64,000 nt of DNA from Clostridiales bacterium (GCA_031276195.1 JAISNN010000077.1:5165-69164); one strand, 5' to 3'. Counted from the stretch's first letter, positions 4,553 to 63,618 are shown. Numbers and translations are program-made. Notes: generated by a model not told the origin, from the letters alone.

Positions 4553-4589
4553 CCCTCCGTGGGAGGGGATCTAAGGGGTGGGGCGACCG
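4553..4589. repeat. short palindromic interspersed element (CCCCTCCGTGGGAGGGG-N6-GGGGTGGGGCGA)
   Basis: 7-bp stem / 3-nt loop GC hairpin followed by GGGGTGGGGCGACCGATT; same element at 37834, 41496 (inverted), 53388, 53489, 53609, 61994 and within the long forms at 61529 and 63426. Confidence 0.85.
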
Positions 4590-4985
4590 ATTTGGGCTTA
4601 TACTAATTTTTATCACACCTTTTTAGAACCGCCTTTTTTTTAACGCCCAACGATTCCGCTTTTTTTGTCAAATTCTTTTTTATCGATTTTTTTTAAGATT
4701 TTTTATCTTTTTTTACAATTCTTTACCCTTTTTACAATTCTTTACCTTTCTTTCCGCCGAACGTCTTTTTTTGACTCTTTCGCCGCCGTCTTGAATGCAA
4801 ACCGATAAAAATTATACTCCGAAACTCACCTATGGTACATTATACAACAAATTCAAAACAAAATCAAGAGAACAAACGATATAAAAAACGAAAATCACGG
4901 CATATATCCGTGTATATTATGCCGCCGCGGGTTTTAGACGGCGGATATACATTAGTATAAAATAAAAAAAATATATCGGGGATTA

Positions 4986-5014
4986 TTGACATTGGCAAAA
5001 ATTCATTATATAAT
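4986..5014 (+). promoter_or_regulatory. consensus sigma70-type promoter TTGACA-17-TATAAT
   Basis: TTGACA at 4986-4991, 17-nt spacer, TATAAT at 5009-5014, about 43 nt upstream of the 5057 ATG. Confidence 0.6.
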
Positions 5015-5056
5015 ATATCCGAAATCTATATTGATAAGGAATAAAGGGATAAAATT

Positions 5057-5917
5057 ATGAAAAAATATTACGCGCCCTTAAAACCGTATTACGTCATCCC
5101 CAGACCTCACCTCTTTTTTAAGACGGCGTTCGCAATCGGCGGACTCTTTATGACGCCGAAAGTCATTCTCTCCGAAGAACTCCCCGACGAACCCGTCATC
5201 TTTATGTCGAATCACGCTTTCGATTACGGACCGCGCGCAATGCTTTTCGTCCAAAAGGTCATAAAAAGGAAATTCAGAATGTGGTCGAACGCGAACGCGG
5301 TAACCGCGAAAACCGCCCCCGACCAAATGATGAAAACCACCTTTCCGAACGTCAAAAAACCTCTGCGCTATCTCGCGCGCCTATTCACATACATCGCGGG
5401 ACCGGTCATCGGCTTGTCGTTTAAAGCGGCGGGCATTATTCCCGTATACCGCGATATGCGCGTAAAGACGACCTACACAAAGACTTTCGAGACCTTAAAG
5501 GCGGGCTACGACGTCGTGATATTCCCCGACTCCGTAATCCCCGACCCCGATAACCCCTACCTCGACAAGGTTCAAAAAGGCGCGTTCAAGACTTTCGATA
5601 TGTGCCGCCGCTTTTTGGACAAAGTGCCGAAACTCTACCCCGTCTACGCTTGCAAACCCCTAAAAACCGTCTGCATCGGAAAAGGCTTCACTTTCGATAC
5701 CTCGATCCCCGTCGCCGAAGCCGAAGAAAAACTCGAAAAAGCCTTGTCGGACGAAATTAAACGCCTCGCGCTCTCCTTGCCGCCGCATAAAATCATTCAC
5801 TCGAATTCCATACCGAAGGATTTGGCGTCCGTCAAAAAATACTTGACCTACAACGAAGAAAAAATTTACTCGAAACTCGACGAAATAAACGCCGCGAAAG
5901 CCGAAAGCCCGAAATGA
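5057..5917 (+). CDS. lysophospholipid/glycerol-3-phosphate acyltransferase family protein (PlsC-like)
   Basis: 286 aa; HX4D acyltransferase motif (SNHAFDYGP); FPDSV..P second motif; RBS AAGGGA 7 nt upstream. Confidence 0.6.
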   Translation: MKKYYAPLKPYYVIPRPHLFFKTAFAIGGLFMTPKVILSEELPDEPVIFMSNHAFDYGPRAMLFVQKVIKRKFRMWSNANAVTAKTAPDQMMKTTFPNVKKPLRYLARLFTYIAGPVIGLSFKAAGIIPVYRDMRVKTTYTKTFETLKAGYDVVIFPDSVIPDPDNPYLDKVQKGAFKTFDMCRRFLDKVPKLYPVYACKPLKTVCIGKGFTFDTSIPVAEAEEKLEKALSDEIKRLALSLPPHKIIHSNSIPKDLASVKKYLTYNEEKIYSKLDEINAAKAESPK

Positions 5918-5944
5918 TTATAAAATTATGGAATACGAGGGGGA

Positions 5945-6000
5945 AAAACTTTTCCGTAAACAAAGATTTTTCCCCTCGCCCCTTTTCAAAAACTTTTAGA
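5945..6000 (+). terminator. palindromic terminator-like element (GGGGGAAAAACTTTTCC...GGAAAAATCTTTGTTT-family) after the acyltransferase gene
   Basis: long inverted repeat GAGGGGGAAAAACTTTTCCGTAAACAAAGATTTTTCCCCTCGCCCC followed by TTTTCAAAAACTTTTAG; member of a recurrent family (2704, 39539, 41660, 59886, 63649). Confidence 0.5.
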
Positions 6001-6318
6001 ATGCGTTCGCATAAGCGAAAACGAGAGAATTTTAGACGGTTTTTGTTCTTTTTAAGGCGTTTTTGACGCGGCATAGGAGCGGTTTTAAATCAAACGTACT
6101 TTTGATTTAAAAGTTTAACCGCTATATTAAGCGATTAAATAAATAAGTAAACCTTGCGAAAATAATCTACGCAAGGTTTTTTAATTACTCAAAACTTCCG
6201 TATGCAATTTTGCCCGTCCGCTAATTGCAATCCGTAATCAAAAAGCGCGAATACGGCAAACGAAACCGCCGCGGTCAGGGATAGCGTATAAGCGTATATC
6301 TGCCGCATATTATGCCGC

Positions 6319-16367: not shown

Positions 16368-17555
16368 ATGAAAAATTTCAAAATCTCAATCAAAAAAACA
16401 GCCGCCCTCGCCGCCGCCCTGTCTCTCCTCATCGCCGCGCTCGTTTCGTGCCAGCACTCGTCGCCGAAAAGCCTCGCGCGCGCCTACGTTACGGATTATA
16501 AGGCGATGAACGCGGCGGGAATTACGGGACTGTACCGCCACGAAAACGACGGCGAAAGAGAAGAATTTAAAGAAGCCCTCGAAAAAACCTTCGGGGACGC
16601 GTCCGAAAGCGAAAAAACAAGCGTCAAATCCGCGAAGTTTAAGGGTTACGAAAAGACGGACGGGAACAAAAATTCGGAAACGGGCGTCGTTAAGATCGCG
16701 GTCAAAACGGGCGGAAACGGCGGAAAAAACGAGCGGAACGTCCCTATGAATTTCGTGAAAATCAAAAATAAATGGTATATCAAAAAGACGCAAAATCAAG
16801 AAACCCAAATATCCGTAACCGCGGCTAAGCCATACGAAACGGATATTGCAACAAACAAAAAAACAAGCGGCGCAAAAAATTTTAGTGCGTACGCAAAAGC
16901 AAACGGCGTAAAGAATTTTATTATGAACGCAAAAACAAGCGGCGCAAAAAATGTCATTATGAACGCAAAAACAAACGGCGCAAAGAATGTCATTATGAAC
17001 GCAAAAACAAGCGGCGCGGCGGATTTTAATATAAACACCTCAATGAACGCCGAAGTAAACGGTACGCCGAACGCCGGAAAAAATGTGAAAGATTTTTTTG
17101 AAAATTTCGGCGAACGGATAAAGAATGCGGCGGAAAAAATGCGATCCGAACTCGGCGGTTTTTTGAACGACGCGGCGGATAAAGCGAAGGTCCTTATCGA
17201 CGGCGTAATCGCTTCCGCGAAAAAGATAAACTCCGGATTCGCCGCCTTCGCGAAAAAAACGGCGGATAAGGTGAAAAACTTTGCGGACGGAATTATTAAT
17301 TCCCTTCAAAAAACGAATTCAAAATTCGCGGGTTTTGCCAAAAACGCGGCGGACAAAGCCCGAACCGTTATAGACGGAATTATTAATTCCACAAAAAAAT
17401 TCAACGCGGAATTCGGGAAATTTGCCAAAAACGCGGCGGATAAAGCCCGAACCGTTATAGACGGAATTATTAATTCCTCAAAAAAATTCAACGCGGAATT
17501 CGGAAAATTTACCAAAACGCGGCGGATAAAATCAAGACCGTACCCGACGGCATAA
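16368..17555 (+). CDS. repeat-containing lipoprotein (signal peptide with LVSC lipobox), probably 3'-frameshifted
   Basis: MKNFKISIKKTAALAAALSLLIAALVSC; internal tandem repeats NAKTSGAKNVIM x3 and AADKARTVIDGIINSxKKFNAEFGKFAKN x3. The last repeat shifts frame at an A4 run (17507-17510) where earlier copies have A5; the +1 frame continues the repeat (..DKIKTVPDGIIAAHRRRNVI*). Confidence 0.6.
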   Translation: MKNFKISIKKTAALAAALSLLIAALVSCQHSSPKSLARAYVTDYKAMNAAGITGLYRHENDGEREEFKEALEKTFGDASESEKTSVKSAKFKGYEKTDGNKNSETGVVKIAVKTGGNGGKNERNVPMNFVKIKNKWYIKKTQNQETQISVTAAKPYETDIATNKKTSGAKNFSAYAKANGVKNFIMNAKTSGAKNVIMNAKTNGAKNVIMNAKTSGAADFNINTSMNAEVNGTPNAGKNVKDFFENFGERIKNAAEKMRSELGGFLNDAADKAKVLIDGVIASAKKINSGFAAFAKKTADKVKNFADGIINSLQKTNSKFAGFAKNAADKARTVIDGIINSTKKFNAEFGKFAKNAADKARTVIDGIINSSKKFNAEFGKFTKTRRIKSRPYPTA

Positions 17556-19175: not shown

Positions 19176-19618
19176 CTAACAATGCCAAACGCATCTCGCC
19201 GGGTTCGGCTCGTTTTCCACCGCGACCGCCCGTAACGCTGCGGTATAGTCCGCGCAAACCTCCTCGGCAATTCTATCATACTCCGCTTCGTCCGCGCCGA
19301 ATCCCAATTTAAATACTTACGCGCCTAACAATGCCAAACACATCTCGCCGGGTTCGGCTCGTTTTCCGCCGCGACCGCCCGCAACGCGGCGGTATAGTCC
19401 GCGCAAACTTCCTCGGCGATTTTATCATACTCCGCTTCGTCCGCGCCGAATTCCAATTTAAATACTTACGCGCCTAACAATGCCAAACACATCTCGCCGG
19501 GTTCGGCTCGTTTTCCGCCGCAACCGCCCGCAACGCGGCGGTATAGTCCGCGCAAACCTCCTCGGCAATTCTATCATACTCCGCTTCGTCCGCGCCGAAT
19601 CCCAAGCGGTCATAAGCG
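19176..19618. repeat. three tandem copies (about 149 bp) of the 3'-terminal coding segment plus stop of the 19474..20004 gene
   Basis: copies at 19176-19324, 19325-19473 and 19474-19618 (the last is the real gene end); each begins CTAACAATGCCAAAC (stop codon on minus strand). Confidence 0.85.
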
Positions 19619-20004
19619 ATTGCCGCCGCCGCGTAAAAATACAACCCAAGCGAATGCGGCGCGGCGTGTATACTTCCCGCCGCCTGTCCGACGGCTCTCG
19701 CGGCGGCTTGCGCGATCGGATTGTTCTCTTGCTCGCGCGCGGCGGCGTGGCACTCGTTCAAAATGATATTTTTCACATACGGCAGTTTAACCTTTCCGTC
19801 CAGCCATTCGCGCGCGGCGGCTATCGCGCGGACGGGACGCGAATCATTCGGGCAATACCTCTCAAACAACGGAATCATCCGCCGCTCGGCATAATTCAAC
19901 GTCCAATTCGCAACCGTGATTTTGCTCTGCGTTTCGATCAGCCGCATCAGCGCGGCGACGGACGGCGACCCGACCTTGCCGAGAGTTTTTCTCAATTTTT
20001 TCAT
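19474..20004 (-). CDS. hypothetical alpha-helical protein (possible immunity-like protein)
   Basis: 176 aa; Ala-rich helical, no catalytic motif; RBS AAGGAG; embedded in a duplication array. Confidence 0.5.
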   Translation of the reverse strand: MKKLRKTLGKVGSPSVAALMRLIETQSKITVANWTLNYAERRMIPLFERYCPNDSRPVRAIAAAREWLDGKVKLPYVKNIILNECHAAAREQENNPIAQAAARAVGQAAGSIHAAPHSLGLYFYAAAAIAYDRLGFGADEAEYDRIAEEVCADYTAALRAVAAENEPNPARCVWHC

Positions 20005-25671: not shown

Positions 25672-25898
25672 TTGCTTTTCCGCTCCCTTTTTTCGGTCTT
25701 TTTTTATATTTTATTTGTATTTTTTAATGCTTTTTTTTTGCGTTTTATATGTTTTCTTATGTTCTTTAATGCTTTTTTTTGCGTTTTTTTGCGTTTTATA
25801 TGTTTTCTTATGTTTTTTAATGCTTTTTTGTGTTTTTTTAGGCTGTTCCGCTCCGCGTGAGGGGGACGGGGCGGCATTGCTTTCTCACCCGATAACGG

Positions 25899-37545: not shown

Positions 37546-37833
37546 AACCGTTATATTATAAACCAAAGAGGAAAATAAATAAAGTAAATTTAAGCCGATT
37601 AACCAAAAAAACAAAAAAAATCACGCGGCAATCCGATCCCGAACCGCCGCGCAAAAAAAATCACATTAAAAAAATTTCAAAAACTTCCGCGCTCCGCAAA
37701 AAATCCCGATTAAATCAAATGGTACAAAAATTACAACTAACATCGGACGGCGTAAAAATTACGACTAAAATCGTACAATGCAAAATTCCCCTCTCGTTAA
37801 GAGAATACCAAATTGGCGTGGCAACAGACTATT

Positions 37834-37870
37834 CCCCTCCGTGGGAGGGGATCAAAGGGGTGGGGCGACC
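37834..37870. repeat. short palindromic interspersed element
   Basis: ATTCCCCTCCGTGGGAGGGGATCAAAGGGGTGGGGCGACCGATT. Confidence 0.85.
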
Positions 37871-37884
37871 GATTAAAAATTATT

Positions 37885-40981: not shown

Positions 40982-41394
40982 TGAACAATTCCTCCCTCTT
41001 TAAATTTATCGCTTTACGGCTCTTTTGACGGTTAATAAAATTCTATCAATTTAAAATTCCGCTTTGCGGTTCCCGTATGTTTGCGAAAACGTTCATCGTT
41101 TAAAATTCCGCTTTACGGCTCTTTTATCGTTTACCGTAACGTTCCGTCTTTTAAAATTTATCGATTGAAATTCTTACGGCTTTTAAATCTCCTCTTTTAT
41201 TCTTTACGCTTATTCATTTTAAATTCACAATTACATTATATTGCATAAGAAAGCCAAAGTCAATAGGTTTTGAAAAAATAAATCATAAAATATATGACGG
41301 ATTAAAAGTTTAATTACGGTTCTACACTTTTCCCAAAATTATTGAAAGTTTTTGAAAAAAAGCGGAAATAAGTAAAATACCTTTTTAGTGCGCG

Positions 41395-41528
41395 GATTTT
41401 TCAGATAAAAAACGGCTTATTTTTGAGGGCAATAGCGTTCGCTATTGCCAAAAACACAAGAACGATTACAAAAATACTAACCCTTTCGCCCCACCCCTAC
41501 ACCCCTCCCACGGAGGGGAATTCTTTAC
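41395..41528. repeat. composite interspersed element in inverted orientation (CAATAGCGTTCGCTATTG palindrome module + CGCCCCACCCC..CCCTCCCACGGAGGGG)
   Basis: revcomp gives CCCCTCCGTGGGAGGGGTGTAGGGGTGGGGCGA followed by GGCAATAGCGAACGCTATTGCC, homologous to the internal module of the 61505 and 63419 long elements. Confidence 0.75.
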
Positions 41529-46700: not shown

Positions 46701-46734
46701 AATATTTTTTCGGATATTTTAATATTTTCAGCAT
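43711..46734 (-). CDS. ABC transporter ATP-binding/permease protein, heterodimer partner, with about 300-aa N-terminal extracytoplasmic domain, NBD insertions and C-terminal 11-aa tandem repeats
   Basis: 1007 aa; TM1, large loop, 5 more TM; NBD with GVTGSGKTT, MSGGQKQRLAIARAV, LYVFDDSFSALD; C-terminus (LKNETDEFKK[TR]) x6 encoded by 33-bp DNA tandem repeats at 43711-43930. Confidence 0.8.
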   Translation of the reverse strand: MLKILKYPKKYLKIIILAVCLIGIQAYCDLELPKYMSNMINVGIRQYGIDDALPDVFSQKTFGEIKLFMTDKEYDEFKNYYIGINYAYTNPLRVIDKKEFEAYKKKYTKLNEGEEVYLLKRNVEYFKNDFTEEEIDALREKLKIPAIVYAAFNEMLAISSVGFLSDNSFLSVLFAYFNGLNPKDNPDGFNEYKENQKGWTLSEYFDELKAMSERQNPDGEGVIYGNSERGLFMQIVSGAVNGKFSPKAGEIKKEDVVKALVDEFGIDENEASSFADTVLSAFSRIAPEITDYILELGNIDYKKFEYGRAGVDTRLLQINYIVQNGIFMLLYTVGSIAAAAVIIALSARVAANVARDLRRDVFSKVQTFSNAEFDKFSTASLITRTSNDVSQLQSLFFLMIKNTFYAIFVVGGGLYYLHKTLGINERLLLLIAAMIAVISVGVAAVYALVLPKFLAGQKLLDKLNLVTRERLSGVLVIRANDNEPREEGRYEDVNQKITNVNLFINRTMALLNPFMMLFLNALGVVIIYLTVDRNYLIDGSILPGSLLAFLQYTVQIIYAFMLIAGMFVFLPRAVVAMKRIWEILAAKPEVADPENPVDIYTGEPVNAGTELNTELKTNGGKSLNFETELNKDKDKSSNTELETNGGKSAAKEKRFDIRFQNVAFKYAGSGEYALKDVSFEAKSGKTTAIVGVTGSGKTTIVNLILRFYDPTEGAVFVNGIDIRRVRQEDLRKNIGFVSQQPRLFSGTVRENLAAGKEDADIADMDRAVLIAKAEDFIGAKEPKTAERSEIIQNEKEKGRNNVEIIPNGEKTVPNENGTDKYGAFVSRAGKNMSGGQKQRLAIARAVVRRPRLYVFDDSFSALDYLTEANLRAALSRETKENNAGVIVVTQRIASVLNADKIVMVDGGKIIGQGTHKELMRDCPPYGELARSQLPEEELLPLKNETDEFKKTLKNETDEFKKRLKNETDEFKKRLKNETSEFKKTLKNETDEFKKTLKKRNGRIQKNA

Positions 46735-47027
46735 ACCGTTTTTTCCTAAGGTTTTTTTGCGGTCTTTTACTTTTTTTATGAATATCTATAACGTTTTTAG
46801 AATGAATTTTCTTGAATGTCTATAACGAACCGTTTTTTTTGTAAAGTTTCTTGTATGTCTATAACGAATAAATAAACTAACCGTTATTTTTAATCCGCTA
46901 CCCCCCGCTATTGACCGCCGTCCGCCGATATTCCACTAAATTATACCACACTATTATTCAAATTTCAATAATAAAGGAAAAATAGAAAAAAATATTTTTA
47001 AAAATTTTGAAAAAGGCTATAAAAATA

Positions 47028-47056
47028 ATTGACATTGCCGCCTTTTAATTATATAA
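47028..47056 (+). promoter_or_regulatory. perfect consensus sigma70 promoter TTGACA-17-TATAAT upstream of potA
   Basis: TTGACA 47028-47033, 17-nt spacer, TATAAT 47051-47056; about 465-nt leader before potA. Confidence 0.6.
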
Positions 47057-47522
47057 TCAATTTAACGTTCTAACGCGGCTTCACGATGCCGCCCGGACGG
47101 GAAAAAGTAAAAAGAGTAAAAAAGCGACAAAACTATTGTTAAAATCCTTAGCTTTTACCGATTTTATATAATTTTTTTGGAAGACGCGCTTTCGTTTAAA
47201 CGGGAATTCTCCCTTTTAAAAGGCTTAACCGCCGCGCGGCTTCTTTAACCGGGTTATATAATTTCCCTAAAAAACGCGGCTTGTCCGTCGTTTCGTTAAG
47301 GATCTTGACGGTAGTTATTTTTTTGCTTTTTTTATAGCAAGTGTTATAAAAAAGACACGGAGGGACGCGGACTTTTACCGGGCTTAATTCCGAATCCCGT
47401 AAAAATCAGCGCGGAATCGTCTTTAAAATTCCCGAATCCCCTTAAAACTTAGTCAATAATTATCATAAAAATTCGTTTCGTAAAGAATTTTGGATATCCC
47501 TATTCTATCGAGGAGCAAAAAA

Positions 47523-49106
47523 ATGGCGGATAACACGATCATCGAATTAAAAAACGTCTCGAAAAGTTTTGCGGGCGGCGTGAACGTCGTCGACAATATC
47601 GGCTTAAAAATCAAAAAGGGCGAGTTCGTAACCCTTTTAGGTCCGTCGGGCTGCGGAAAAACGACCACGCTCAGAATGATCGCGGGTTTTGAGATTCCGA
47701 CGGCGGGCGACGTGCTTTTGAACGGCGAATCCATAATAAACGTCCCCCCTCACCTGCGCCCCGTCAATACGGTGTTTCAAAAATACGCGCTTTTTCCGCA
47801 TTATAACGTGTTTGAGAATATCGCTTTCGGTCTGAAAATCCGGAATAAGCGTATGATCGCCGAAAAAAAAGCCGAAGCGAAACGCGAAAGCAATGCGGAA
47901 AAAAGACAAGCATTGAAATACAAGTCCGAAGCAAAAAAAGAAAATGATTCCGATAAAAAACAAGCATTAAAAGATAAAGCGAAAGAAACGCTAAAAAGCG
48001 GCGCGGAAAAAAGACAAGCCCTAAAAAACGAAGCCGCCGGAATCAAGGCGAATTCCAAAAATGAAATAGAAAAAAAGGTCAAAACCGTCTTAAAGATGGT
48101 GGGGCTCAGCGACTACGAATACCGCGACGTAAACAGCCTCAGCGGCGGACAGCAACAGCGCGTCGCGATCGCCCGCGCGCTTGTGAACGAACCCGAAGTC
48201 CTCCTCCTCGACGAGCCTTTGGGCGCGTTGGACTTGAAACTCCGCAAGGAAATGCAACTCGAATTAAAGGAGATGCACGAAAAACTCGGCATAACGTTTA
48301 TATACGTTACGCACGACCAAGAGGAGGCTTTGACGATGAGCGATACCGTCGTCGTTATGAAAGACGGGATTATCCAGCAAGTCGGAACGCCTACGGACGT
48401 ATACAACGAACCGAAAAACGCCTTCGTCGCGAATTTCATAGGGGATTCTAATATATTCGACGGCGTTATGCCCGAAGATTTGGTCGTGCGCTTTGACGGC
48501 GCGGTCTTCGAGTGCGCGGACAAGGGTTTCAAAAAGAACGAAAAGGTCGACGTGGTTATACGCCCCGAAGATATATACCTTATGGACGCGTCCAACCCGA
48601 ACGCGCAAGTCAAAGGAAAGGTTATTTCCAGCATATTCAAGGGCGTTCACTACGAGATGGGCGTTATGTCCGAAAATAAATGCGAATATCTCGTGCAGGA
48701 CACGACGAAACGGGACGTCGGCGAAGAAGTGGGTATGTTCGTCAAGCCCTTCGATATACACATTATGAAAAAGCCCTATACGGCGAACGTATTCGAGGGT
48801 GTAATCGCGGAGAACGGCAAGGTCAATTTCGGCGGCGGCGTCTACGACGCGGATACCGAAGGCTTTTCGGAGGGCGAAAACGTCTGGGTCAAGGTATCAC
48901 TGAACGCCGTCGAAATCGTCGACGACAAGGAAAACGGTACGGTAGGCGGCGAAGTTACGACCATTTTATTTAAGGGGACGCACTACCATATCGATATCAA
49001 ATGCGGAAACTTTATATACCACGTCAATACCGACGTGCAATGGGACGACTATGACCGCGTGGGCATAATCATAAAACCCGAAAATATAAAACTCTATAAG
49101 GCATAA
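47523..49106 (+). CDS. potA: spermidine/putrescine ABC transporter ATP-binding protein with Lys/Glu-rich repeat insertion and C-terminal TOBE domains
   Basis: GPSGCGKTT Walker [28 protein letters not shown]-loop; about 75-aa insert (AEKRQALK repeats, about 47840-48085) in the helical subdomain; start set to ATG 47523 ([14 protein letters not shown]) with GGAG RBS; the track start 47490 is TTG. Confidence 0.88.
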
Positions 49107-49134
49107 AAAAAACGCGGTTGGTTTGCCGCGGAAA

Positions 49135-49430
49135 TACTTGCGGAATAATACGCTAAAAACACGGCTCTATACCGCGGAATTACGCGCAGAATAATATACT
49201 AAAAAACGCGGCTCTATACCGCGGAATGACGAACGGAATAATATACTAAAAACGCGGCTCTATACCGCGGAAATACTTGCGGAATAATATACTAAAAAAC
49301 GCGGCTCTATACCGCGGAATTGCGAACGGAATAATATACTAAAAAACGCGGCTCTATACCGCTGAATTACGCGCAGAATAATATACTAAAAAACGCGGCT
49401 CTATACCGCGGAATTACGCGCAAAAAACAC
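49135..49430. repeat. about 58-bp tandem repeat x5 between potA and potB
   Basis: unit ACGCGGCTCTATACCGCGGAATTACGCGCAGAATAATATACTAAAAA. Confidence 0.85.
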
Positions 49431-49454
49431 GGCTTTTGTGAGGTTTAAAAAAAT

Positions 49455-51440: not shown

Positions 51441-53045
51441 ATGAAAAAAACAAAGTTCATCGTTCTGCTTTTGGTTTTGGCGATCTGCCTGCCCGTCTTG
51501 GCGGCTTGCAACACCGCCACACCCGACGACGTCCTCTACGTCTACAACTGGGAGGACTATATCAGCGAGGATCTGATCAAAGCCTTTGAAGAAAAATATA
51601 GCGTTACCGTCGAAGTTCCGACCTTCGACACAAACGAAACTATGATCACAAACCTTGTCGACGGAAAACAGTCCTACGACATAATCTGCCCGTCCGACTA
51701 CGCCATTCAGCAACTCATAAAACGCAAACTCTTGGAACCGCTTGACAAGGACAAATTGCCCGTATATTTTGAAAACGTTTCGTACGGCGTCCACGACAAA
51801 TTCGAGGGCATCATAACGGACGACGCGGACAATCTTTACGCGATCGGCTATATGTGGGGCATTATGGGCATCCTGTATAACGTCGAAAAACTTGAAGAAA
51901 AAGGCTTTTCAGTCGAAAACGACAATATCGACACATGGGGCTTGCTGTTTGAGGAGGAGTTTAAAGGGCAGGTCTATATGAAAGACAGCATAAGGGACAC
52001 TTTCGCCGCGCTCTCGCTTTGGGCATACAGAGAAGAATTGGCAAGCGGCGAATTAAAACCTCAGGACGTTTTGTCGAACGATAAAGACGGCTTGATCGAC
52101 CGCGTAAAAGCGGTGTTTAAAGAACAAAAAAGCAAGGTTTCTCCCCTTTTCGAGGTCGACGAGGCGAAAAACAGTTTGGCGGAGGGGCAGTACGCTATGG
52201 CTCTTATGTGGAGCGGCGACGCTTATGAATCCATCTTGAACGCCGCCGAAAAAGGCATAGAACTCGGTTTTGCATATCCTACGGAGGGCAATAACATATT
52301 CTTTGACGGGCTGGCGATTCCGAAAAACGATAAGCGCACGGATGCCAAACGCGACCTTATATATAAGTTTTTGAATTTCATATCCGAACCCGAAAACGCC
52401 GCCGTCAATATGGAAGCGACGGGCTACACGAGCGTTATCGCGGGAACGGGTACGACGGTCGACGACAATCCTATTTTGAAATACGCGCATGTTTCGGAGG
52501 AAGAGGGCGGCGAAGTAAACAACTTCTTTTTTCCCGAAGGCGTGGACGTTCCCGTCGACACTCTTTTGTATCCATCGCCCGAATATTTGGCTGAAAAATG
52601 CGCGATAATGTACGACTACGGCGACAGAACGGAAGCCTTTAACGACGCGTGGGTCGAACTTATGGGCAACGTCGGCGGCGATGACGAAGGACTGCCGGGC
52701 TGGGCGGTCGCATTGATCGTCATAGGATCGATATTGGTCGTTTTGGGCGTCTTGGGCTTTGTATTCAGAGCGAAAGTCGCGGACTTTATCGGCAAAAAAT
52801 TCCCAAACCTCTTAAAGAAAAATACGGCTGATTCCGCGGCAAGCGGCGCGGCAAACGCGCCGAAACCTTCTTCCGCAAGCGGCGCGGAAACGGAAAAATC
52901 GCCCGGAAACGCAACGACGAAAGCCGAAAAACCCTCCCCCGCTCCGTCCGAAACGGAAAGCGGCAAGACCGCCGAACAACACGCGGACAAAAAACCGCCC
53001 GCATTCGACGATGACGACGACGAATTTATTCCTCCCGTCAAATAA
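51441..53045 (+). CDS. potD: spermidine/putrescine-binding lipoprotein with C-terminal TM helix and low-complexity acidic tail
   Basis: lipobox LAAC; PotD/PotF SBP fold over about 400 aa; then GWAVALIVIGSILVVLGVLGFVF TM and an Ala/Ser/Pro/Lys-rich tail ending DDDDDEFIPPVK. Confidence 0.8.
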   Translation: MKKTKFIVLLLVLAICLPVLAACNTATPDDVLYVYNWEDYISEDLIKAFEEKYSVTVEVPTFDTNETMITNLVDGKQSYDIICPSDYAIQQLIKRKLLEPLDKDKLPVYFENVSYGVHDKFEGIITDDADNLYAIGYMWGIMGILYNVEKLEEKGFSVENDNIDTWGLLFEEEFKGQVYMKDSIRDTFAALSLWAYREELASGELKPQDVLSNDKDGLIDRVKAVFKEQKSKVSPLFEVDEAKNSLAEGQYAMALMWSGDAYESILNAAEKGIELGFAYPTEGNNIFFDGLAIPKNDKRTDAKRDLIYKFLNFISEPENAAVNMEATGYTSVIAGTGTTVDDNPILKYAHVSEEEGGEVNNFFFPEGVDVPVDTLLYPSPEYLAEKCAIMYDYGDRTEAFNDAWVELMGNVGGDDEGLPGWAVALIVIGSILVVLGVLGFVFRAKVADFIGKKFPNLLKKNTADSAASGAANAPKPSSASGAETEKSPGNATTKAEKPSPAPSETESGKTAEQHADKKPPAFDDDDDEFIPPVK

Positions 53046-53380: not shown

Positions 53381-53690
53381 GTAAATTCCCCTCCGCGGGA
53401 GGGGCAAGGGGTGGGGCGAACTTTCCTTACTATCCTCAATTCCCCTCTTAAAGCGCATCTTTCCGCATTTCTCTAATTTTCCGCTATTCCCCTCCGCGGG
53501 AGGGATCAAAGGGGTGGGGCGAAACGTTCGCTTGATATTTTACCGTTTACGTCAATGACAACGGGGCTTACAAAGCGATGCATTTTCCCCCGTTCTCTCA
53601 TTATCCTCAATTCCCCTCCGCGGGAGGGATCAAAGGGGTAGGGCGGCATTATGAAATTATTATATTCCTCAATTCCCCTCCGTATAGAAA
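53381..53690. repeat. cluster of 3 complete + 2 truncated short palindromic elements
   Basis: complete copies at 53388-53420, 53489-53522, 53609-53640; truncated AATTCCCCTC at about 53440 and 53674; irregular spacing (20-85 bp). Confidence 0.8.
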
Positions 53691-53755: not shown

Positions 53756-53799
53756 ATTTAAAATCGGTTTTTCGCGTAATTAAACGCGTAAAATCCGAC

Positions 53800-54000
53800 G
53801 TCATAGAGGCGCGGAATATCAATAGTAACTTTTTTTTAAGAGGGCTTCGCGGCTTTCGCATATTCTTTCCCGTCCGCTTTACGGGAAGTTATGACCGTTA
53901 AGAAAAGTGAAAGGGATTTTCCGCCGAAACAAAACGGAATTTTATCGCGGTTTTCCGTTTTGTTGGCCGCGCGGGGCTAATACCTCTCCGGCTGTCGCTT
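53800..54000 (+). promoter_or_regulatory. candidate lysine riboswitch (L-box)
   Basis: ordered conserved L-box blocks: AGAGGCGC (53808), AGTAAC (about 53826), GAAAGGG (53893), CCGAAAC (53907), TGGCCG (53957), GCTGTCGC (53990) over about 190 nt, followed by a U-rich stretch; downstream neighbourhood includes asd-dapA-dapB. Confidence 0.5.
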
Positions 54001-54249
54001 TTGTTTTGTATTTTGTTTTTCGGTCGTTTCGGCAAATACGGCGGTTAAAAGTTCCGCGTTGACCGATTAAAAACTTTGCGGTTAAAGTTTTCGGCGCGGG
54101 TTGCAAAAATACAAAAAAAATAAAGCGGAGCGCTATGTTACTTCTAAAATTACGGGGTTTAAATAAGCGGCAGTTTTTTTAAACCGTTGTTTTGGGGCGG
54201 CATTAGCGGAATGCCGTCTTTATTTATACCTCGAAAAAAAATAAAAATT

Positions 54250-54600
54250 TACTTTCGGCATAACAAAAACGAAATAAAAAACGCGTTATCTTTCCACTTT
54301 CGGCATAACAAAAAACGAAATAAAAAACGCGTTGTCTTTCCCCGTTCGGCATAACAAAAACGAAATAAAAAACGCGTTATCTTTTCCCCGTTCGGCATAA
54401 CAAAAAACGAAACAAAAAACGCGTTATCTTTTCCCCGTTCGGCATAACAAAAACGAAATAAAAACGCGTTATCTTTCCCCGTTCGGCATAACAAAAAACG
54501 CGTTGTCTTTCCGCTTTCGGCATAACAAAAAACGAAATAAAAAACGCGTTATCTTTTCCCCGTTCGGCATAACAAAAACGAAACAAAAAAACGCGTTTTT
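54250..54600. repeat. 46-bp tandem repeat x about 7 (unit GTTCGGCATAACAAAAACGAAATAAAAAACGCGTTATCTTTTCCCC)
   Basis: near-identical units with no unique spacers; each contains the AACGCGTT palindrome; one unit internally deleted (54481-54515). Confidence 0.85.
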
Positions 54601-54666
54601 TTATAACGGAAAGAATAAAAAACTATATTTCCGTCATCCCCCAAAAAATCGGGAGGTAAAACAAAA

Positions 54667-55752
54667 TTGAGCGAAGAAAATAACGCTTTCAACGGCGAAT
54701 CAAACCCCGCCGTTTCATACGGTTGTTCCTCTTGCGGCGGCGCGCTCGAATACTCGCCCGAAAAGGGCGCGCTTTGCTGTCCGTACTGCGGAAATACGGA
54801 GGAAGTCGCGCGCGGCGAGTCCGCGGAACGCGATTTTTTGTCGCACGCCTCCTCTTCCGAGGGCTGGGCGGAAGAAGCGTTCGCCTATTCCTGCCCGAAC
54901 TGCGGAAGCGCGCAAGTCATCGAAAAAGACGACTTGACGCACGTATGCCCTTTTTGCGGCACGCAAGCCGTCCTGAACAGCGGCGTTTTGACGGGTATCA
55001 AACCCGACAGCCTGATCCCCTTTTCTCTGCCGCGGACAAAGGCGGAGGAGGCTTTTAAGGCGTGGACAAAGAGCCGTTTTTTCCTGCCGAACGCCCTAAA
55101 AAAACGGGCGGACGCCGATAAATATCACGGCGTGTTTATGCCCGTCTGGACGTTCGACGACAAAACCTTTTCCGATTATGAAGGGCTGCTCGGAAAACAC
55201 TACACCGTTACGGTCGGAAGCGGCAAAAACCGCCGCACCGAAGTACGCACGAGATATTTCAGCATTAAAGGTTCCGTTTCGGAATTTTTCGATGACGTTT
55301 GCATAAACGCCAGCGACAAAATCGAAAAAAAACATCTGAATAAAATTATGCCCTACGACACCAACAACGGCGTAAAATACGACAAAAAGTTTTTGGCGGG
55401 TTTTTCGGCGATACGGTATAACAAGGACATAAAAACCGCGTGGGCGGAGGCGAAAGACAATATCGCGGGGCGGCTCCGCGCGCTCATTTTGTCAAAATAT
55501 AACTATGACGTCGTGTCGCGCCTCAATATCCAAACGCGGCACACGAACATCACCTTTAAATATATACTGCTCCCCGTTTGGGTCTCGAATTTCAAATATA
55601 ATTCTAAAATATACAATTTTTTTATAAACGGAATAAGCGGAAAAGTTTCGGGAAAACGCCCGTACTCCGCGCCGAAAATTCTCGCCGCGATCGGAGGGGG
55701 ACTCGCCGCCGCGGGGCTGCTGTTTTTTCTCATTTCAAAACTTGCGGGGTAA
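54667..55752 (+). CDS. hypothetical zinc-ribbon protein with C-terminal TM anchor
   Basis: 361 aa; three CxxC..CPxCG pairs at the N-terminus (CSSCGG..CCPYCG; CPNCGS..CPFCG); C-terminal hydrophobic helix; TTG start with GGGAGG RBS. Confidence 0.5.
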   Translation: MSEENNAFNGESNPAVSYGCSSCGGALEYSPEKGALCCPYCGNTEEVARGESAERDFLSHASSSEGWAEEAFAYSCPNCGSAQVIEKDDLTHVCPFCGTQAVLNSGVLTGIKPDSLIPFSLPRTKAEEAFKAWTKSRFFLPNALKKRADADKYHGVFMPVWTFDDKTFSDYEGLLGKHYTVTVGSGKNRRTEVRTRYFSIKGSVSEFFDDVCINASDKIEKKHLNKIMPYDTNNGVKYDKKFLAGFSAIRYNKDIKTAWAEAKDNIAGRLRALILSKYNYDVVSRLNIQTRHTNITFKYILLPVWVSNFKYNSKIYNFFINGISGKVSGKRPYSAPKILAAIGGGLAAAGLLFFLISKLAG

Positions 55753-55789
55753 TGAAAGCGCGAACTTAGCGGAAATACTATACAGAGTC

Positions 55790-56000
55790 CAAACAACGGC
55801 ATACCGTACAAAATCTAAATAATGCAATACTCTAATAACGCGGCATACCGTGCAAAACCTAAACAATGCAATACTCTAATAACGCGGCATACCGTGCAAA
55901 ACCTAAACAATGCAATACTCTAATAACGCGGCATACCGTACAAAACCTAAATAATGCAATACTCTAATAACGCGGCATACTATGCAAAATCTAAATAATG
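55790..56000. repeat. about 57-bp tandem repeat x about 4 upstream of asd
   Basis: unit CTAAACAATGCAATACTCTAATAACGCGGCATACCGTGCAAAAC. Confidence 0.8.
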
Positions 56001-56130
56001 TAATATTCTAAAATACAGAATACTCCGCAAAACCGGTTAAATACCGCCGCTAACCGCCGCAAATGTAAAATCCCTTTCAATCACATCATAATATATAATA
56101 CACAATATATATCAAGGAGAAACAACGTCA

Positions 56131-61458: not shown

Positions 61459-61504
61459 GTTTTGCCGTTAGAGATTATCTTTCGCGGATTGCAAGTTTAA
61501 GAGC

Positions 61505-61712
61505 CGTCAGCCTCCAAAATTCCCCTCCGTGGGAGGGGATAAGGAAGCGGAGATTAAACGGAACGAATTTTGAATAGCGGATTTTTTAGATAGGAAGCGG
61601 CTTGTTTTTGCGGGCAATAGCATTCGCTATTGTCAAAAAGACAAGGCGGTTTATAGCAAAAAAGACGCATTCTAAAATCCGTTCAAGTTTACTCGACGAT
61701 TCCAAGGGTGGG
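61505..61712. repeat. long-form interspersed element (about 205 bp), copy A, upstream of serA
   Basis: CCCCTCCGTGGGAGGGG at the left end, internal GCAATAGCATTCGCTATTG palindrome, CCAAGGGTGGGGCG at the right end; about 97% identical to 63419-63618. Confidence 0.85.
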
Positions 61713-61993
61713 GCGGCCGTTAAAAAAACTTTCGCGGATTGCAAGTTTAAGCGTTGTCTAAAACGACAAAATTATTCATTGAAAAAAGGATATAATGTTT
61801 GAGAGTTGAGTAATTTAAGAGTTATCTGAAACATTATATATTCGTAATATATAGTATGTATGCCGTTTGCGGACCGCGCAGCCCCCCCTTTTTCGGGGGA
61901 AACCGGCAATTAAACGCGGAAAAAACGGCATTTAAAAAAACCGAAACCAAAACGGCATTTAAAAAATCCCCTTAGCGGAAAGTCTCCAAAATT

Positions 61994-62030
61994 CCCCTCC
62001 GTGGGAGGGGTTGGGGTGGGGCGACCGATT
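61994..62030. repeat. short palindromic interspersed element
   Basis: AATTCCCCTCCGTGGGAGGGGTTGGGGTGGGGCGACCGATT. Confidence 0.85.
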
Positions 62031-62248
62031 AGAAAAAGTCCGTCCTCCGTATCGCGATAAAAATTTCCTAAAAAAACGGATTACAAAAAAATTTAAAACA
62101 AGAAAGCAAAACAATCAAAATAAAACAAGAAAAACAGTCAAAACAAACTAAAACCCATTATAAATCATTATAAACCAAACCAAACGTTATAAAACGAACC
62201 AAACCAAACCCAAAAAAACATTATAAAACAAGGAAACCGATATAAAAT

Positions 62249-63412
62249 ATGTATAAAATTTTAAAATTGAATGAAATAAGCGACCGAATCGACGCGATTT
62301 TTGATGAAAACTATTCCTGCACCGACGACGCGAACGAAGACGCGGACGGCATAATCGTCCGCAGTTTCAAGATGGCGGATTTTAATACGGGCGGCAGGCT
62401 CAAAGCCGTCGCGCGCGCGGGCGCGGGCGTAAACAACATTCCGATAGACAAGATGACGGAAAAGAACGTCGTCGTTTTCAACACTCCGGGCGCGAACGCG
62501 AACGCCGTCAAGGAACTTGTCATTTGTTCTTTGCTTTTGGCTTCCCGAAAGGTTACGGAGTCGATCGGCTGGGCGGCGGCGCAGAAGGGCAAGGGCGGCG
62601 AAGTCCCGAAACTCGTCGAGAAGTTTAAAAACCAATTTGTCGGACCCGAAATCGCGGGGAAAACTCTCGGCGTGATCGGTTTGGGCGCGATCGGGATTCT
62701 GGTTGCGAACGCCGCGATCGGTTTGGATATGAAGGTTTTGGGGTATGACCCGTATCTCAGCGTCGAGTCCGCGCTCACCTTAAACAACAAAGTCGGGCAT
62801 ACCAAGGACATAAACGCCCTTTATGCCGCGAGCGACTATATAACTTTGCATCTTCCCCTTTTGCCCTCGACTTCGGGTATGATAAACGCCGAAACGATCG
62901 CCAAGATGAAAGACGGCGTAAAACTTATCAATTGCGCGCGCGGCGAATTAGCGGACAACGCCGCGGTGATTGCGGCGGTGAGTTCGGGCAAGGTCGCCAA
63001 GTACGTAACGGATTTTCCGACGGACGACGTTTTGAACGTCGAAAACATAATTGCGATTCCCCATCTCGGCGCGTCCACGCCCGAAGCGGAGGACAACTGC
63101 GCGGTTATGGCGGCGAAACAACTCAAAGACTACCTTGAAAACGGCAATATCGTAAACAGCGTGAACTACCCCGCGGCGGTTTTGCCGCGCAGCGGAAAAG
63201 CGCGGATCACGATCACGCACAAAAATATAAGCGGTATGATATCGCAGGCGGCGGCTTTCCTCTCCGACTCAAAAATTAATATCTCGAATATGCTCAGCGC
63301 GACGCGCGGCGACCTCGGCTATATGATAATCGATACCGACGACGCCGTACCCGAAAAAACTATATCCGAAATGAAAAAAATCCAAGGCTTCCTGCAAATC
63401 AATATATATTAA
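62249..63412 (+). CDS. serA: D-3-phosphoglycerate dehydrogenase (short form with C-terminal ACT)
   Basis: 387 aa; 2-hydroxyacid DH NAD-binding GxGxIG (GVIGLGAIG), catalytic R/E/H region, C-terminal ACT (ITHKNISGMIS). Confidence 0.88.
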   Translation: MYKILKLNEISDRIDAIFDENYSCTDDANEDADGIIVRSFKMADFNTGGRLKAVARAGAGVNNIPIDKMTEKNVVVFNTPGANANAVKELVICSLLLASRKVTESIGWAAAQKGKGGEVPKLVEKFKNQFVGPEIAGKTLGVIGLGAIGILVANAAIGLDMKVLGYDPYLSVESALTLNNKVGHTKDINALYAASDYITLHLPLLPSTSGMINAETIAKMKDGVKLINCARGELADNAAVIAAVSSGKVAKYVTDFPTDDVLNVENIIAIPHLGASTPEAEDNCAVMAAKQLKDYLENGNIVNSVNYPAAVLPRSGKARITITHKNISGMISQAAAFLSDSKINISNMLSATRGDLGYMIIDTDDAVPEKTISEMKKIQGFLQINIY

Positions 63413-63418
63413 AACCTC

Positions 63419-63618
63419 CATACATTCCCCTCCGTGGGAGGGGATAAGGAAGCGGAGATTAAACGGAACGAATTTTGAATAGCGGATTTTTTAGATAGAA
63501 AGCGGCTTGTTTTTGCGGGCAATAGCATTCGCTATTGCCAAAAAGACAAGACGGTTTATGGCAAAAAAGACCCATTCTAAAATCCGTTCAAGTTTACTCG
63601 ACGATTCCAAGGGTGGGG
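63419..63618. repeat. long-form interspersed element, copy B, immediately downstream of serA
   Basis: begins 7 bp after the serA stop; direct repeat of 61505-61712. Confidence 0.85.

Follow-up and report, generated by a model that had tools for sequence, protein, structure and literature searches.

Interspersed GC-rich hairpin repeats in a Clostridiales genome and their candidate DUF559 endonuclease partner

A hairpin repeat between the genes of the window

The window analysed here, a 64-kb stretch from a Clostridiales MAG, holds features that include aroA, serC, serA, an ABC transporter gene and a lysine riboswitch; the genome is repeat-rich and generally prone to tandem duplication. Nine full copies of a GC-rich hairpin repeat, written ATT-CCCCTCC-GYG-GGAGGGG-linker-GGGGTGGGGCGA, lie in its spacers at a density of about one per 7 kb—all of them intergenic, as the preliminary description had claimed—along with three half copies and one decayed copy (Table 1).

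That these form a genuine interspersed family, as first proposed, is borne out in two ways. Matches to CCCCTCCGYGGGAGGGG with zero or one mismatch occur nine times, against 0.02 expected by chance from dinucleotide shuffles, and a tenth match, with two mismatches, is the decayed copy; a covariance model trained on copies from many genomes, and run on the window with filters off, returns exactly the same nine and no others (E 3e-13 to 8e-5), eight on the plus strand and one on the minus strand. The full count is nine rather than the ten or more reported earlier. Earlier coordinates hold to within a few bases, with 53613 in place of 53609 and 61522 in place of 61529; the inverted copy placed at 41496 is indeed present on the minus strand, with a span of 41480-41521. 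Half copies of the form ATTCCCCTC, announced near 53440 and 53674, are found at 53439 and 53672, with a third at 37785.

Table 1. Positions, sequence features and settings of the repeat elements in the 64-kb window
Feature	Position	Strand	CCCCTCCGYGGGAGGGG at	Sequence	Model score	Setting
c1	4549..4592	+	4552	ATT-CCCCTCC-GTG-GGAGGGG-ATCTAA-GGGGTGGGGCGA-CCGATT	51.1 bits, E 3.7e-12	Divergent spacer: APH-like kinase gene 3242-4381 (-) / ORF 5057-5917 (+) (Pfam)
Decayed copy	25845..25880	+	25848	CCGCTCCGCGTGAGGGG-GAC-GGGGCGGCATT; stem with 2 mismatches	unscored	Directly downstream of aroA 25899-27803 (-)
Half copy	37785..37797	+		ATTCCCCTCTCGT		46 nt upstream of c2
c2	37831..37874	+	37834	Linker ATCAAA	50.8 bits	11 nt past stop of HNH ORF 37885-38238 (-); antisense to both adjoining genes
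Repeat X, separate copy	41392..41461	+		Long hairpin; contains …GGGCAATAGCGTTCGCTATTGCC…
c3	41480..41521	-	41502	Linker TGTA	53.6 bits	208 nt downstream of ABC transporter gene 41729-43633 (-), sense orientation
c4	53385..53425	+	53388	Loop GCG, linker CAA	50.6 bits	c4-c6: three direct copies, spacing 101 and 124 nt, between solute-binding-protein gene 51441-53045 and lysine riboswitch 53796-54008
Half copy	53439..53448	+		CCTCA-ATTCCCCTCT
c5	53486..53528	+	53489	3' arm GGGAGGGA, linker TCAAA	44.7 bits	See c4
c6	53610..53650	+	53613	Second module is variant GGGGTAGGGCGG	37.4 bits	See c4
Half copy	53672..53683	+		CCTCA-ATTCCCCTCCGT
c7, composite	61519..61721	+	61522	Hairpin module 61519-61538; 163-nt nested long hairpin (DNA dG -49.5, z -8.3); GGGTGGGGCGGCCGTT 61706-61721		Starts 61 nt past serC stop
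Repeat X in c7 linker	61577..61645
c8	61991..62030	+	61994	Linker TT	54.9 bits	219 nt upstream of serA
c9, composite	63424..63626	+	63427			Starts 12 nt past serA stop
Repeat X in c9 linker	63482..63551

The element measures 40-57 nt, and 40-45 nt in the window, the composite copies (203 nt) aside, and the unit is asymmetric: the left module consists of ATT and a 7-bp hairpin (CCCCTCC/GGAGGGG), the right module of GGGGTGGGG-CGA-CCGATT, and the linker between them runs from 2 nt up to a nested hairpin of 163 nt. At six window copies GGGGTGGGGCGA follows a linker of 2-6 nt. In the composite copies at 61519 and 63424 the right module reads GGGTGGGGCGNCCGTT and lies 163 nt further downstream, because a long nested hairpin, which includes repeat X, occupies the linker. 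Between these two copies, 97% of positions agree over exactly 203 nt, starting at ATT and ending at CCGTT, and their flanks are unrelated; this identity delimits a unit of duplication that is bounded by the left and right modules. The 44-nt frame quoted in the preliminary description is exact at the 37831 copy alone; the other copies differ from it in linker and 3' tail. Its proposal of a stable hairpin with a 7-bp stem and 3-nt loop agrees with the predicted fold of every copy folded (DNA dG -7 to -8.4 kcal/mol). Copies in the window are singletons or direct tandems, with no inverted pairs among the nine, and the HNH ORF next to c2 has a homologue in another genome where the element is absent.

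Site turnover among relatives and spread across phyla

In 13.8 kb of the closest available relative, L056 (SerA 88% identical), the model scores four copies, and degenerate ones occur as well; the sites partly differ from those of the window, and the pair at 8516/8563 consists of direct tandem copies. The serC-serA spacer of L056 has one copy only, to which c8 is probably orthologous, and no counterpart of c7 or c9 is detected in L056. Coding DNA of the two genomes aligns at 81-83%; of their spacers nothing but the element aligns, at 92-100%. Relatives at about 80-81% SerA identity have no copies in 11-16 kb, and the serC-serA spacer measures 790 nt in the window versus 15-172 nt in copy-free relatives. 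The presence of the element is lineage-specific, with turnover of sites.

Beyond this lineage, the 20-mer ATTCCCCTCCGYGGGAGGGG occurs in GTDB genomes at no fewer than 38 loci, in about ten phyla among the matches listed, where an estimate assuming uniform composition gives about two chance matches in 596 Gb. The matched MAGs belong to Patescibacteria, Bacillota, Cyanobacteria, Acidobacteria, Alpha- and Betaproteobacteria, Lentisphaerae, Bacteroidota, Armatimonadota and Fibrobacterota; in most of the listed matches the next feature is GGGG(T/A)GG, although the query did not include it. The common order is ATT flank, 7-bp C/G hairpin, variable linker (2-165 nt) and GGGG(T/A)GG, and the covariance model finds 69 copies of the element in 342 kb. 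From phylum to phylum the stem keeps one sequence, and its loop varies freely; conservation is highest in the columns of the G-runs, between which the T/A is free to differ. The linker is often hairpin-forming—these linker hairpins have compensatory changes at four of four tested pairs, and 12 of 22 loops are G-N-A triloops. In Oscillospiraceae the variant is GGGGTGGTGG.

The element is thus not confined to the window, being present in L056 and many other genomes, nor is it a tRNA or rRNA fragment, the other identity that the preliminary description had set as a test: ARAGORN finds nothing, and Rfam 15 yields no match at the gathering threshold for the elements of the window or of 20 loci, with noise only at E<=1. 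Other genomes also hold inverted doublets with spacers of 23-27 nt, head-to-head in L011, L022, L033 and L040, and in one Patescibacteria genome the element lies in frame within the genes for IleRS (17 codons) and LeuRS (~23 codons). Such doublets and in-frame insertions are DNA-level behaviour, and the element resides in essential genes.

DUF559 cassettes in other genomes

In Alphaproteobacteria, inverted copies directly bracket a gene for a DUF559 (Vsr-like) endonuclease of ~115 aa. Searches that began from the motif led to DUF559 genes with bracketing copies at L008, L027 and L004, and searches that began from the gene found flanking on both sides in three of the three DUF559 clusters fetched (P0113, P0013 and P0027), all of which belong to one clade (64-100% identical to each other). 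The only independent lineage is the cyanobacterial gene at L004 (38% identical), where inverted doublets lie upstream instead of a tight bracket; at both L004 and L041 the gene is surrounded by doublets, with no single neat pair.

The element and the gene are closely interlocked. The left copy provides the ribosome-binding site, its G-run serving as the Shine-Dalgarno sequence, with the start codon 5-8 nt past GGGGAGGG in three cassettes, and the right copy often contains the stop codon. Translated traces of the element are seen in the homologues: 15 of 120 end in KPSPxx, the translated G-run, and the translated hairpin (PP..GG or TPPxxGN peptides) appears in 16 of the 28 with extended ORF calls. 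The same tight integration recurs in separate genomes whose DUF559 proteins are ~65-85% identical.

The cassette proteins belong to PF04480 and match PDB 3hrl (E 1e-16), with the residues E-x-D-G-x-x-H aligned to it in an alignment read by eye, so read, the catalytic residues appear intact. The fold is related to the EDxHD homing endonucleases and has proven homing members: relatives of DUF559/Vsr include the homing endonuclease I-Bth0305I (PMC3384342, PMC3424549, PMC9403480). The cassette itself is a very small, selfish-looking gene directly after stop codons or a tRNA gene; at L027 it is followed by a repeat of 85 nt from the 3' end of the gene upstream, and no phage matches were obtained. 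Predicted inversion targets are enriched in DUF559 genes, with an odds ratio of 14.3 (PMC9881135), which fits the presence of flanking inverted repeats.

The cassettes share their ends with the window elements; however, tblastn finds no DUF559 gene in the 64-kb window, and there is none in the 13.8 kb of L056 and none adjoining ~35 sampled copies from Oscillospiraceae and Patescibacteria MAGs. Because the window is without such a gene, the link is one seen in other genomes only.

Possible origins of the repeat

We place about even confidence in the view that the nine window elements belong, as non-autonomous copies, to a selfish, duplicative family with the DUF559 cassette as its candidate autonomous form. 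That form would be ~0.5 kb long, two inverted units around the DUF559 gene, and its product, judged from sequence, would be the mobilising enzyme. The nuclease would recognise the hairpin and G-run modules, whose sequence does not vary, most likely in the form of a DNA hairpin or cruciform, and nick there; copies would then spread through repair- or replication-coupled copying, and solo units, those of the window among them, would be what this process produced or left behind. This genome would have, or have had, a DUF559 gene. Against the cassette as parent stands the window variant, which carries GGGGTGGGGCGA rather than GGGGAGGGTT; additionally, a Vsr-like nuclease is not known to us as the sole enzyme of any transposition system.

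Free-standing homing endonuclease genes of the Vsr-like/EDxHD kind (I-Bth0305I; PMC3239194, PMC3384342) resemble the cassettes in the predicted DUF559 fold and E-x-D-G-x-x-H residues, and in being very small genes of selfish appearance. In contrast, the EDxHD enzymes known so far have an additional DNA-binding region and are found in introns, inteins or phage genes, and they are not known to have hairpin-repeat brackets or solo repeat progeny. The GC clusters and double-hairpin elements of fungal mitochondria are GC-rich mobile motifs of one or two hairpins in AT-rich spacers, and they sometimes adjoin mobile endonuclease ORFs or duplicated gene 3' ends, comparable to the 85-nt repeat of L027; however, they are organellar and unrelated in sequence to the element, and to our knowledge have no defined DUF559-type partner enzyme.

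The elements may instead be selfish or neutral DNA spread by other means—some other enzyme, host recombination or replication slippage—with DUF559 merely a frequent neighbour, an account that we regard as unlikely but deserving of weight. The same modest probability covers DUF559 cassettes that home into or beside existing elements, or that have co-opted the elements as expression or insulation signals. The copies without a nearby DUF559 gene in the window, L056, Oscillospiraceae and Patescibacteria speak for spread by other means, as do the DUF559 genes amid doublets at L004 and L041, the direct tandems at 53.4 kb (three) and in L056, as slippage would give, and the tendency of this genome to tandem duplication. 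Against this account stands the tight and conserved Shine-Dalgarno and stop codon integration described above, and the invariance of the stem across phyla speaks for a dedicated protein that recognises the element and is transferred along with it.

An RNA cis element of the sort proposed for REPs, its hairpin shielding mRNA 3' ends from exonucleases or modulating termination or translation, seems distinctly unlikely. It would suit the seven of nine window copies that lie downstream of a co-directional gene in the same orientation, three copies being 12-208 nt past a stop codon, as well as the stability of the hairpin and the covariation in the linker hairpins. However, one window copy is antisense and another lies in a divergent promoter region, and elsewhere there are inverted pairs, both orientations relative to ORFs and in-frame coding copies; the failure to match Rfam also counts against it. 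Termination, raised in the preliminary description, is unlikely: the hairpin leads into the linker and G-run and not into a T-tract, and a terminator scan makes no call. A variable loop on a fixed stem marks a sequence-specific DNA or protein site, not a pure RNA fold.

Mobilisation as a classical REP/REPIN family by a single-copy RAYT (a Y1 HUH transposase) elsewhere in the genome is very unlikely. The preliminary description rightly placed the repeats among dispersed, extragenic, palindrome-containing families of the REP/MITE kind, and the likeness to REP/REPIN-RAYT systems (PMC3337134, PMC3733652) lies in short GC-rich extragenic palindromes in many copies (nine in 64 kb), sites mostly after genes, inverted doublets in other genomes resembling REPINs, and a small nuclease-type gene between inverted copies. 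A single-copy RAYT could also sit outside the window. The cognate RAYT/IS200-like transposase that had been suggested is, however, lacking among the 40 window ORFs (Pfam), and no Y1 transposase emerged as a shared neighbour when the ORFs up to 1.5 kb from copies at 38 loci were compared all-versus-all; the recurrent gene between inverted copies is DUF559. The tags GTAG and CGTC of the two REP superfamilies (PMC3733652) are absent at both stem feet, which carry (A)ATT on the 5' side and the linker and G-run on the 3' side, and the element is bipartite. Inverted doublets are not the main unit in the window, and the core is shared by about ten phyla, whereas REPIN-RAYT systems are described as mostly vertically inherited (10.1101/2022.05.22.493013).

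MITEs and the Rickettsia palindromic elements (RPEs; PMC10969869) are likewise small, non-autonomous repeats with secondary-structure potential, and RPEs lie within Rickettsia genes as our element does in IleRS and LeuRS; RPEs are, however, about 150 nt long, and the CGTC-type RPE-4 and RPE-6 are unrelated to it in sequence. The unit's ends, ATTCCCCTCC… and …GGGGCGACCGATT, are not mutual inverted repeats. The best direct repeats that flank the window copies score 7-23, and random intergenic controls have a mean of 17, with 28% scoring at least 20; such repeats are no commoner at copies than in random intergenic DNA, and no consistent target-site duplication, as a MITE would have, is seen.

A structural DNA motif that switches between hairpin or cruciform and G-quadruplex (GGG-A-GGGG…GGGG-T-GGGG) and affects supercoiling, transcription or replication, or provides a binding site for a host factor, is highly improbable: four G-runs of at least three lie on one strand in all window copies, with first and third loops of 1 nt, and the G-runs are strongly conserved, but the predicted motif does not extend to all family members, the first run being just GG in copies with a CAC-type loop and the Oscillospiraceae variant departing from it, and the ATT flank, the inverted bracketing of nuclease genes and the lineage-specific turnover are left unexplained.

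Taken as a selfish family with a DUF559 cassette as candidate autonomous form, the repeat is apparently an undescribed kind of miniature selfish DNA, and not a classical REP/RAYT system. The window copies probably have no dedicated function; the hairpins 12-61 nt past the serA and serC stops may incidentally stabilise mRNA 3' ends.

Copies in the window and the anatomy of the unit

The 17-mer CCCCTCCGYGGGAGGGG matches the window at nine positions with at most one mismatch, where shuffled sequences are expected to give 0.02, and GGGGTGGGGCGA follows the hairpin by 2–6 nt at six of these nine copies (0.28 expected by chance). A covariance model built on copies from many genomes and applied unfiltered to the entire window returns exactly the same nine—eight on the forward strand and one on the reverse, with E-values from 3e-13 to 8e-5—and nothing else above noise. 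The repeat family of the preliminary description is therefore real, with its count of at least ten copies reduced to nine: a tenth match has two mismatches, and the rest are half copies. As that description had it, every copy is intergenic, and a hairpin with a 7-bp stem and a 3-nt loop is predicted for each copy folded, the G-run module being left essentially unpaired. Shuffle z-scores for single-unit folds are weak (−0.4 to −1.8) and uninformative, because C-runs and G-runs pair even when shuffled. Judged by the window alone, the element is an ordinary-looking repeat.

The unit is 40–44 nt long and runs in a fixed order: ATT, hairpin, linker (TT, CAA, TGTA, ATCAAA and the like), GGGGTGGGGCGA and, usually, CCGATT. 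Two copies, c7 and c9, are composite; a second module (GGGTGGGGCGNCCGTT) lies 163 nt downstream, and the pair is 97% identical across exactly 203 nt, from ATT to CCGTT, between unrelated flanks. Since identity ends at both modules, the duplicated unit is bounded by the two modules, and its linker is able to carry cargo. The cargo of c7 and c9 is a long hairpin (DNA ΔG −49.5 kcal/mol, z −8.3) with a 70-nt core that also stands alone in the window. A second repeat family, X, is a perfect-stem hairpin of about 45 nt (CTTGTTTTTGCGGGCAATAGCATTCGCTATTGCCAAAAAGACAAG).

Features of the window (c1–c9, copies of the element; copy positions are those of the 17-mer)
Feature	Position	Strand	Context or detail
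c1	4552	+	divergent spacer
c2	37834	+	antisense, 11 nt beyond stop of HNH ORF
c3	41502	−	208 nt past ABC transporter gene
c4	53388	+	between solute-binding-protein gene and lysine riboswitch
c5	53489	+	as c4; direct copy, 101 nt on
c6	53613	+	as c4; direct copy, 124 nt on
c7	61522 (61519-61721)	+	starts 61 nt past serC stop codon
c8	61994	+	
c9	63427 (63424-63626)	+	starts 12 nt past serA stop codon
Tenth match	25848		2 mismatches
Half copies	37785; 53439; 53672		ATTCCCCTC…
Repeat X	41392-41461		alone; also site of the 70-nt core
Repeat X	61577-61645; 63482-63551		nested in linkers of c7 and c9
HNH ORF	37885-38238	−	117 aa
Lysine riboswitch	53796-54008		62.8 bits
Zinc-ribbon ORF	54667-55752	+	
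Tandem array	214-760		period about 11 nt
Tandem array	2778-3231		about 110 nt
Tandem array	22640-23004; 29462-29627		about 91 nt
Tandem array	27937-28124		about 14 nt
Tandem array	37272-37543		about 79 nt
Tandem array	43670-43923		about 33 nt
Tandem array	49108-49439		about 47 nt
Tandem array	54245-54636		about 46 nt
Tandem array	55753-56016		about 44 nt
Tandem repeat	19176-19622 / 19474-20004		149 nt x 3
aroA	25899-27803		enlarged ORF
aroB	28144-29448		enlarged ORF
aroC	24352-25671		enlarged ORF
ABC ATPase	47490-49106		enlarged ORF
ORF	16368-17555		enlarged ORF

Searches for a known identity returned little. The element matches no Rfam family, at the gathering threshold or E ≤ 1, and no tRNA or tmRNA fragment was found in it, which removes the possibility of a tRNA or rRNA fragment. 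A terminator is unlikely, as no T-tract lies 3′ of the hairpin, and so is the termination role suggested earlier. A 23-nt direct repeat around c7 was considered as a target-site duplication; no consistent duplication was found, and the reading is not supported because random intergenic positions of this tandem-repeat-rich genome show flanking direct repeats as often. Having neither terminal inverted repeats nor a detectable target-site duplication, the unit does not belong with MITEs. The HNH ORF beside c2 was also rejected as a partner enzyme, because its 61%-identical homologue in L061 (the one with retrievable DNA) has no element; the adjacency is incidental. This ORF is orphan-like: a search of 5.8 billion proteins gives it only three homologues. 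The label of Cas9-type protein that one source attaches to it is implausible.

The genes encoded by the window are housekeeping genes (shikimate pathway, ackA-pta, ABC transporters, asd, serC and serA), and a Pfam scan of 40 of its ORFs found no transposase, RAYT (REP-associated Y1 transposase) or DUF559 protein. A/T-rich tandem arrays occupy almost all intergenic regions, which is unusual for a bacterial genome. The first comprises about 50 phased T-tract units, TTTTTnAGCCn, with a period near one helical turn—this suggests strongly curved DNA. Another, of eight 46-nt units (54245-54667), separates the lysine riboswitch from the zinc-ribbon ORF, the next ORF, about 660 nt downstream. The 149-nt repeat overlaps the start of an Imm5-like immunity-protein ORF and adjoining small ORFs. 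Housekeeping enzymes exceed their usual length by 50–200 aa owing to in-frame tandem-repeat insertions (NYDGFEENNDSARHSG three times in AroB, ACGNSVSNPE three times in AroC, two blocks in AroA), and their Pfam matches are split accordingly. Gene orientation flips at about 46734-47490, with essentially all genes from 800 to 46734 on the reverse strand and all from 47490 onward on the forward; the switch could represent an origin of replication or else a major point of divergence.

Range across phyla and turnover between relatives

The element is not confined to the window. An exact scan for the 20-mer ATTCCCCTCCGYGGGAGGGG, over one genome per GTDB species, found at least 38 loci, where about two chance matches are estimated in 596 Gb of uniform composition. 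The matches listed include Patescibacteria (six loci of one MAG, and one Falkowbacteria MAG), Oscillospiraceae (17 loci of one MAG), another Bacillota MAG, Leptolyngbya, Acidobacteria, Alpha- and Betaproteobacteria, Lentisphaerae, Bacteroidota (including Pedobacter albus), Armatimonadota and Fibrimonadaceae. Matches often lie at contig ends, as repeats would, and in most of those listed the motif GGGG(T/A)GG(G/T), which is absent from the query, follows the hairpin after a linker of 2–34 nt. A phage origin was rejected, the 20-mer having no match in the 2.9 million viral contigs of IMG/VR.

Long linkers form hairpins of their own in 20 of 23 distinct cases. G-N-A triloops, which typify unusually stable DNA mini-hairpins, make up 12 of the 22 linker loops (GAA seven times, GCA three, GGA two). 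Compensatory changes occur at all four linker base pairs tested (16 cells, a value reached by none of 500 shuffles); this covariation test covers linker pairs, the main stem sequence being fixed by the search pattern. Diverged stems, CTCCCC/GGGGAG and CCCCC/GGGGG, were found as well. Over 342 kb of loci fetched from other genomes (L-numbers) the covariance model identifies 69 copies, and head-to-head inverted doublets with 23–27 nt spacers are common (L011, L022/L039, L033, L040). In the metagenome scan the window-specific variant appears in one termite-gut sample only (Ga0123355; L039 and L040), on contigs that have no genes in common with the window.

The closest available relative, L056, has a SerA 88% identical to that of the window; within 13.8 kb it carries four copies that the model scores, besides some degenerate ones. 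Its coding DNA is 81–83% identical to the window; within the spacers alignment is limited to the element, at 92–100%, and it is thus conserved far beyond its surroundings. The serC–serA spacer of L056 holds one copy, best matching c8, and no counterpart of c7 or c9 occurs in the 13.8 kb. Relatives at 80–81% SerA identity have no copy within 11–16 kb, and their serC–serA spacers measure 172 and 15 nt versus 790 nt in the window. The family is thus specific to particular lineages, with turnover between close relatives.

DUF559 genes between inverted units

When the ORFs lying up to 1.5 kb from copies were compared all against all, a single relevant family proved to be shared, by L004, L008 and L027: DUF559 (PF04480), which matches PDB 3hrl (E 1e-16), with the residues E-x-D-G-x-x-H read by eye from the alignment. 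DUF559 genes are among the commonest bacterial genes annotated as ‘endonuclease domain-containing’, and their role is unknown. In L008 two inverted units surround the gene. The left unit, ATTCCCCTCC-cac-GGAGGGG-t-GCCAACGAAGTTGG-t-GGGGAGGG-ttatata-ATG, leads into about 115 codons, with its G-run spaced from the start codon as a Shine-Dalgarno sequence would be; the right unit, AAACCCTCCCC-GGTGGCA-TAG-CCACC-A-CCCCTCC-cac-GGAGGGGAAT, holds the stop codon (TAG) inside its linker hairpin. L027 is bracketed as L008 is. Its cassette (5250-5950) lies between two near-identical copies, of about 85 nt, of the upstream gene's 3′ end, a repetition comparable to that of elements that integrate into and restore a gene end.

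When the gene was the starting point, three of three contigs of DUF559 clusters chosen from a protein search were flanked on both sides: tightly and directly after a tRNA-Ser gene (P0013), tightly and directly after the exbD stop codon with a solo copy 1.3 kb away (P0027), and by doublets with diverged stems (P0113). At L051 (1862-2400) a cassette begins immediately past the 3′ end of a tRNA-Ser(GCT) gene, with a stray half copy, ATTCCCCGCC, after the right unit. The units can be read in the proteins too—a KPSPxx C-terminus, the translated G-run, ends 15 of 120 homologues, and PP..GG or TPPxxGN peptides, the translated hairpin, occur by a strict pattern in 16 of the 28 with extended ORF calls. 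The DUF559 proteins of the bracket cases share 64–100% identity, the only independent lineage being the cyanobacterial L004 (38% identical), in which the gene has doublets on its upstream side.

DUF559 has been grouped with Vsr and with the EDxHD homing endonuclease I-Bth0305I (PMC3424549, PMC3384342, PMC9403480). Its genes are over-represented among predicted inversion targets (odds ratio 14.3; PMC9881135), an excess consistent with flanking inverted repeats. We found no paper on the repeat or its link to DUF559, and the DUF559 papers found do not mention flanking repeats.

Units also enter genes. In Patescibacteria STD1_31 one lies in frame within IleRS (…YEMYE-FPSAGGVARASRDGVGF-QADYEP…; L036 992-1049, 17 residues), and LeuRS carries a unit plus a second hairpin in frame (L032 ~2819-2900, about 23 residues); the insert peptides are Pro/Gly/Arg-rich. 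In this they resemble Rickettsia palindromic elements (PMC10969869). The L036 IleRS also has a His_Phos_1 domain insertion.

Candidate route of spread and its meaning

We give roughly even chances to the explanation that the window copies are non-autonomous units of a family whose autonomous form is the DUF559 cassette. The Vsr-like nuclease of the cassette would nick at the two modules, hairpin and G-run, and repair- or replication-coupled copying would spread the copies. The family and its architecture, the DUF559 bracket in other genomes, turnover between relatives, the duplication unit bounded by modules and the in-frame insertions are all observed; the role of the enzyme and the mechanism are inferred. 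The main weakness of this explanation is the absence of DUF559 from the window, from the 13.8 kb of L056 and from beside about 35 Oscillospiraceae and Patescibacteria copies, and the same absences speak for another enzyme, or slippage, spreading the repeats with DUF559 merely a neighbour—a reading we consider unlikely. An RNA 3′-end element is less probable still: in-frame insertions, inverted brackets, no orientation rule relative to genes, and a fixed stem sequence with a variable loop argue for selfish DNA that a sequence-specific protein recognises, and against a dedicated RNA element.

REP/REPIN-RAYT systems are nearest in working, with palindromic repeats and inverted copies on either side of a small nuclease gene. 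Our element falls outside them because neither a GTAG nor a CGTC tag is present (PMC3733652), the 40 window ORFs scanned include no RAYT, and the window holds no doublets; the RAYT proposed earlier as mobiliser thus finds no support, and a classical REP-RAYT system is improbable. CGTC REPs themselves ‘apparently lack a dedicated transposase’ (PMC3733652). The remaining reading, a G4/hairpin structural motif, we regard as highly improbable. To our knowledge, REP-like repeats outside RAYT-bearing Proteobacteria are mostly without a known mobilising enzyme. What appears to be new here is a REP-like family whose candidate partner enzyme differs, whose unit is bipartite and tolerates cargo, and whose range crosses phyla.

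More tentatively, the cassette of about 0.5 kb—a DUF559 gene for a Vsr-like protein of about 115 aa between two inverted hairpin-linker-G-run units—could possibly represent a class of minimal autonomous mobile element not recognised before, one that would have spread horizontally over at least ten bacterial phyla and would seed REP-like solo hairpins such as those in the window and enter essential genes in frame (IleRS, LeuRS). The weight of the finding lies in the link to DUF559 and in how widely the family ranges, both still candidate for this genome. If true, the recurrent and tightly integrated pairing of hairpin repeat and DUF559 would assign DUF559 a function open to testing, suggest a candidate mechanism by which a repeat family crosses phylum boundaries, make a very small element (about 480 bp) available for studies of nuclease-driven mobility, and account for DUF559 genes scoring as ‘programmable inversion’ targets. 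For annotation, the pairing also explains why many ORF calls for DUF559 have spurious Pro/Gly-rich extensions at the N- and C-terminus, and why aaRS genes of Patescibacteria (CPR bacteria) contain odd inserts of 17 codons.
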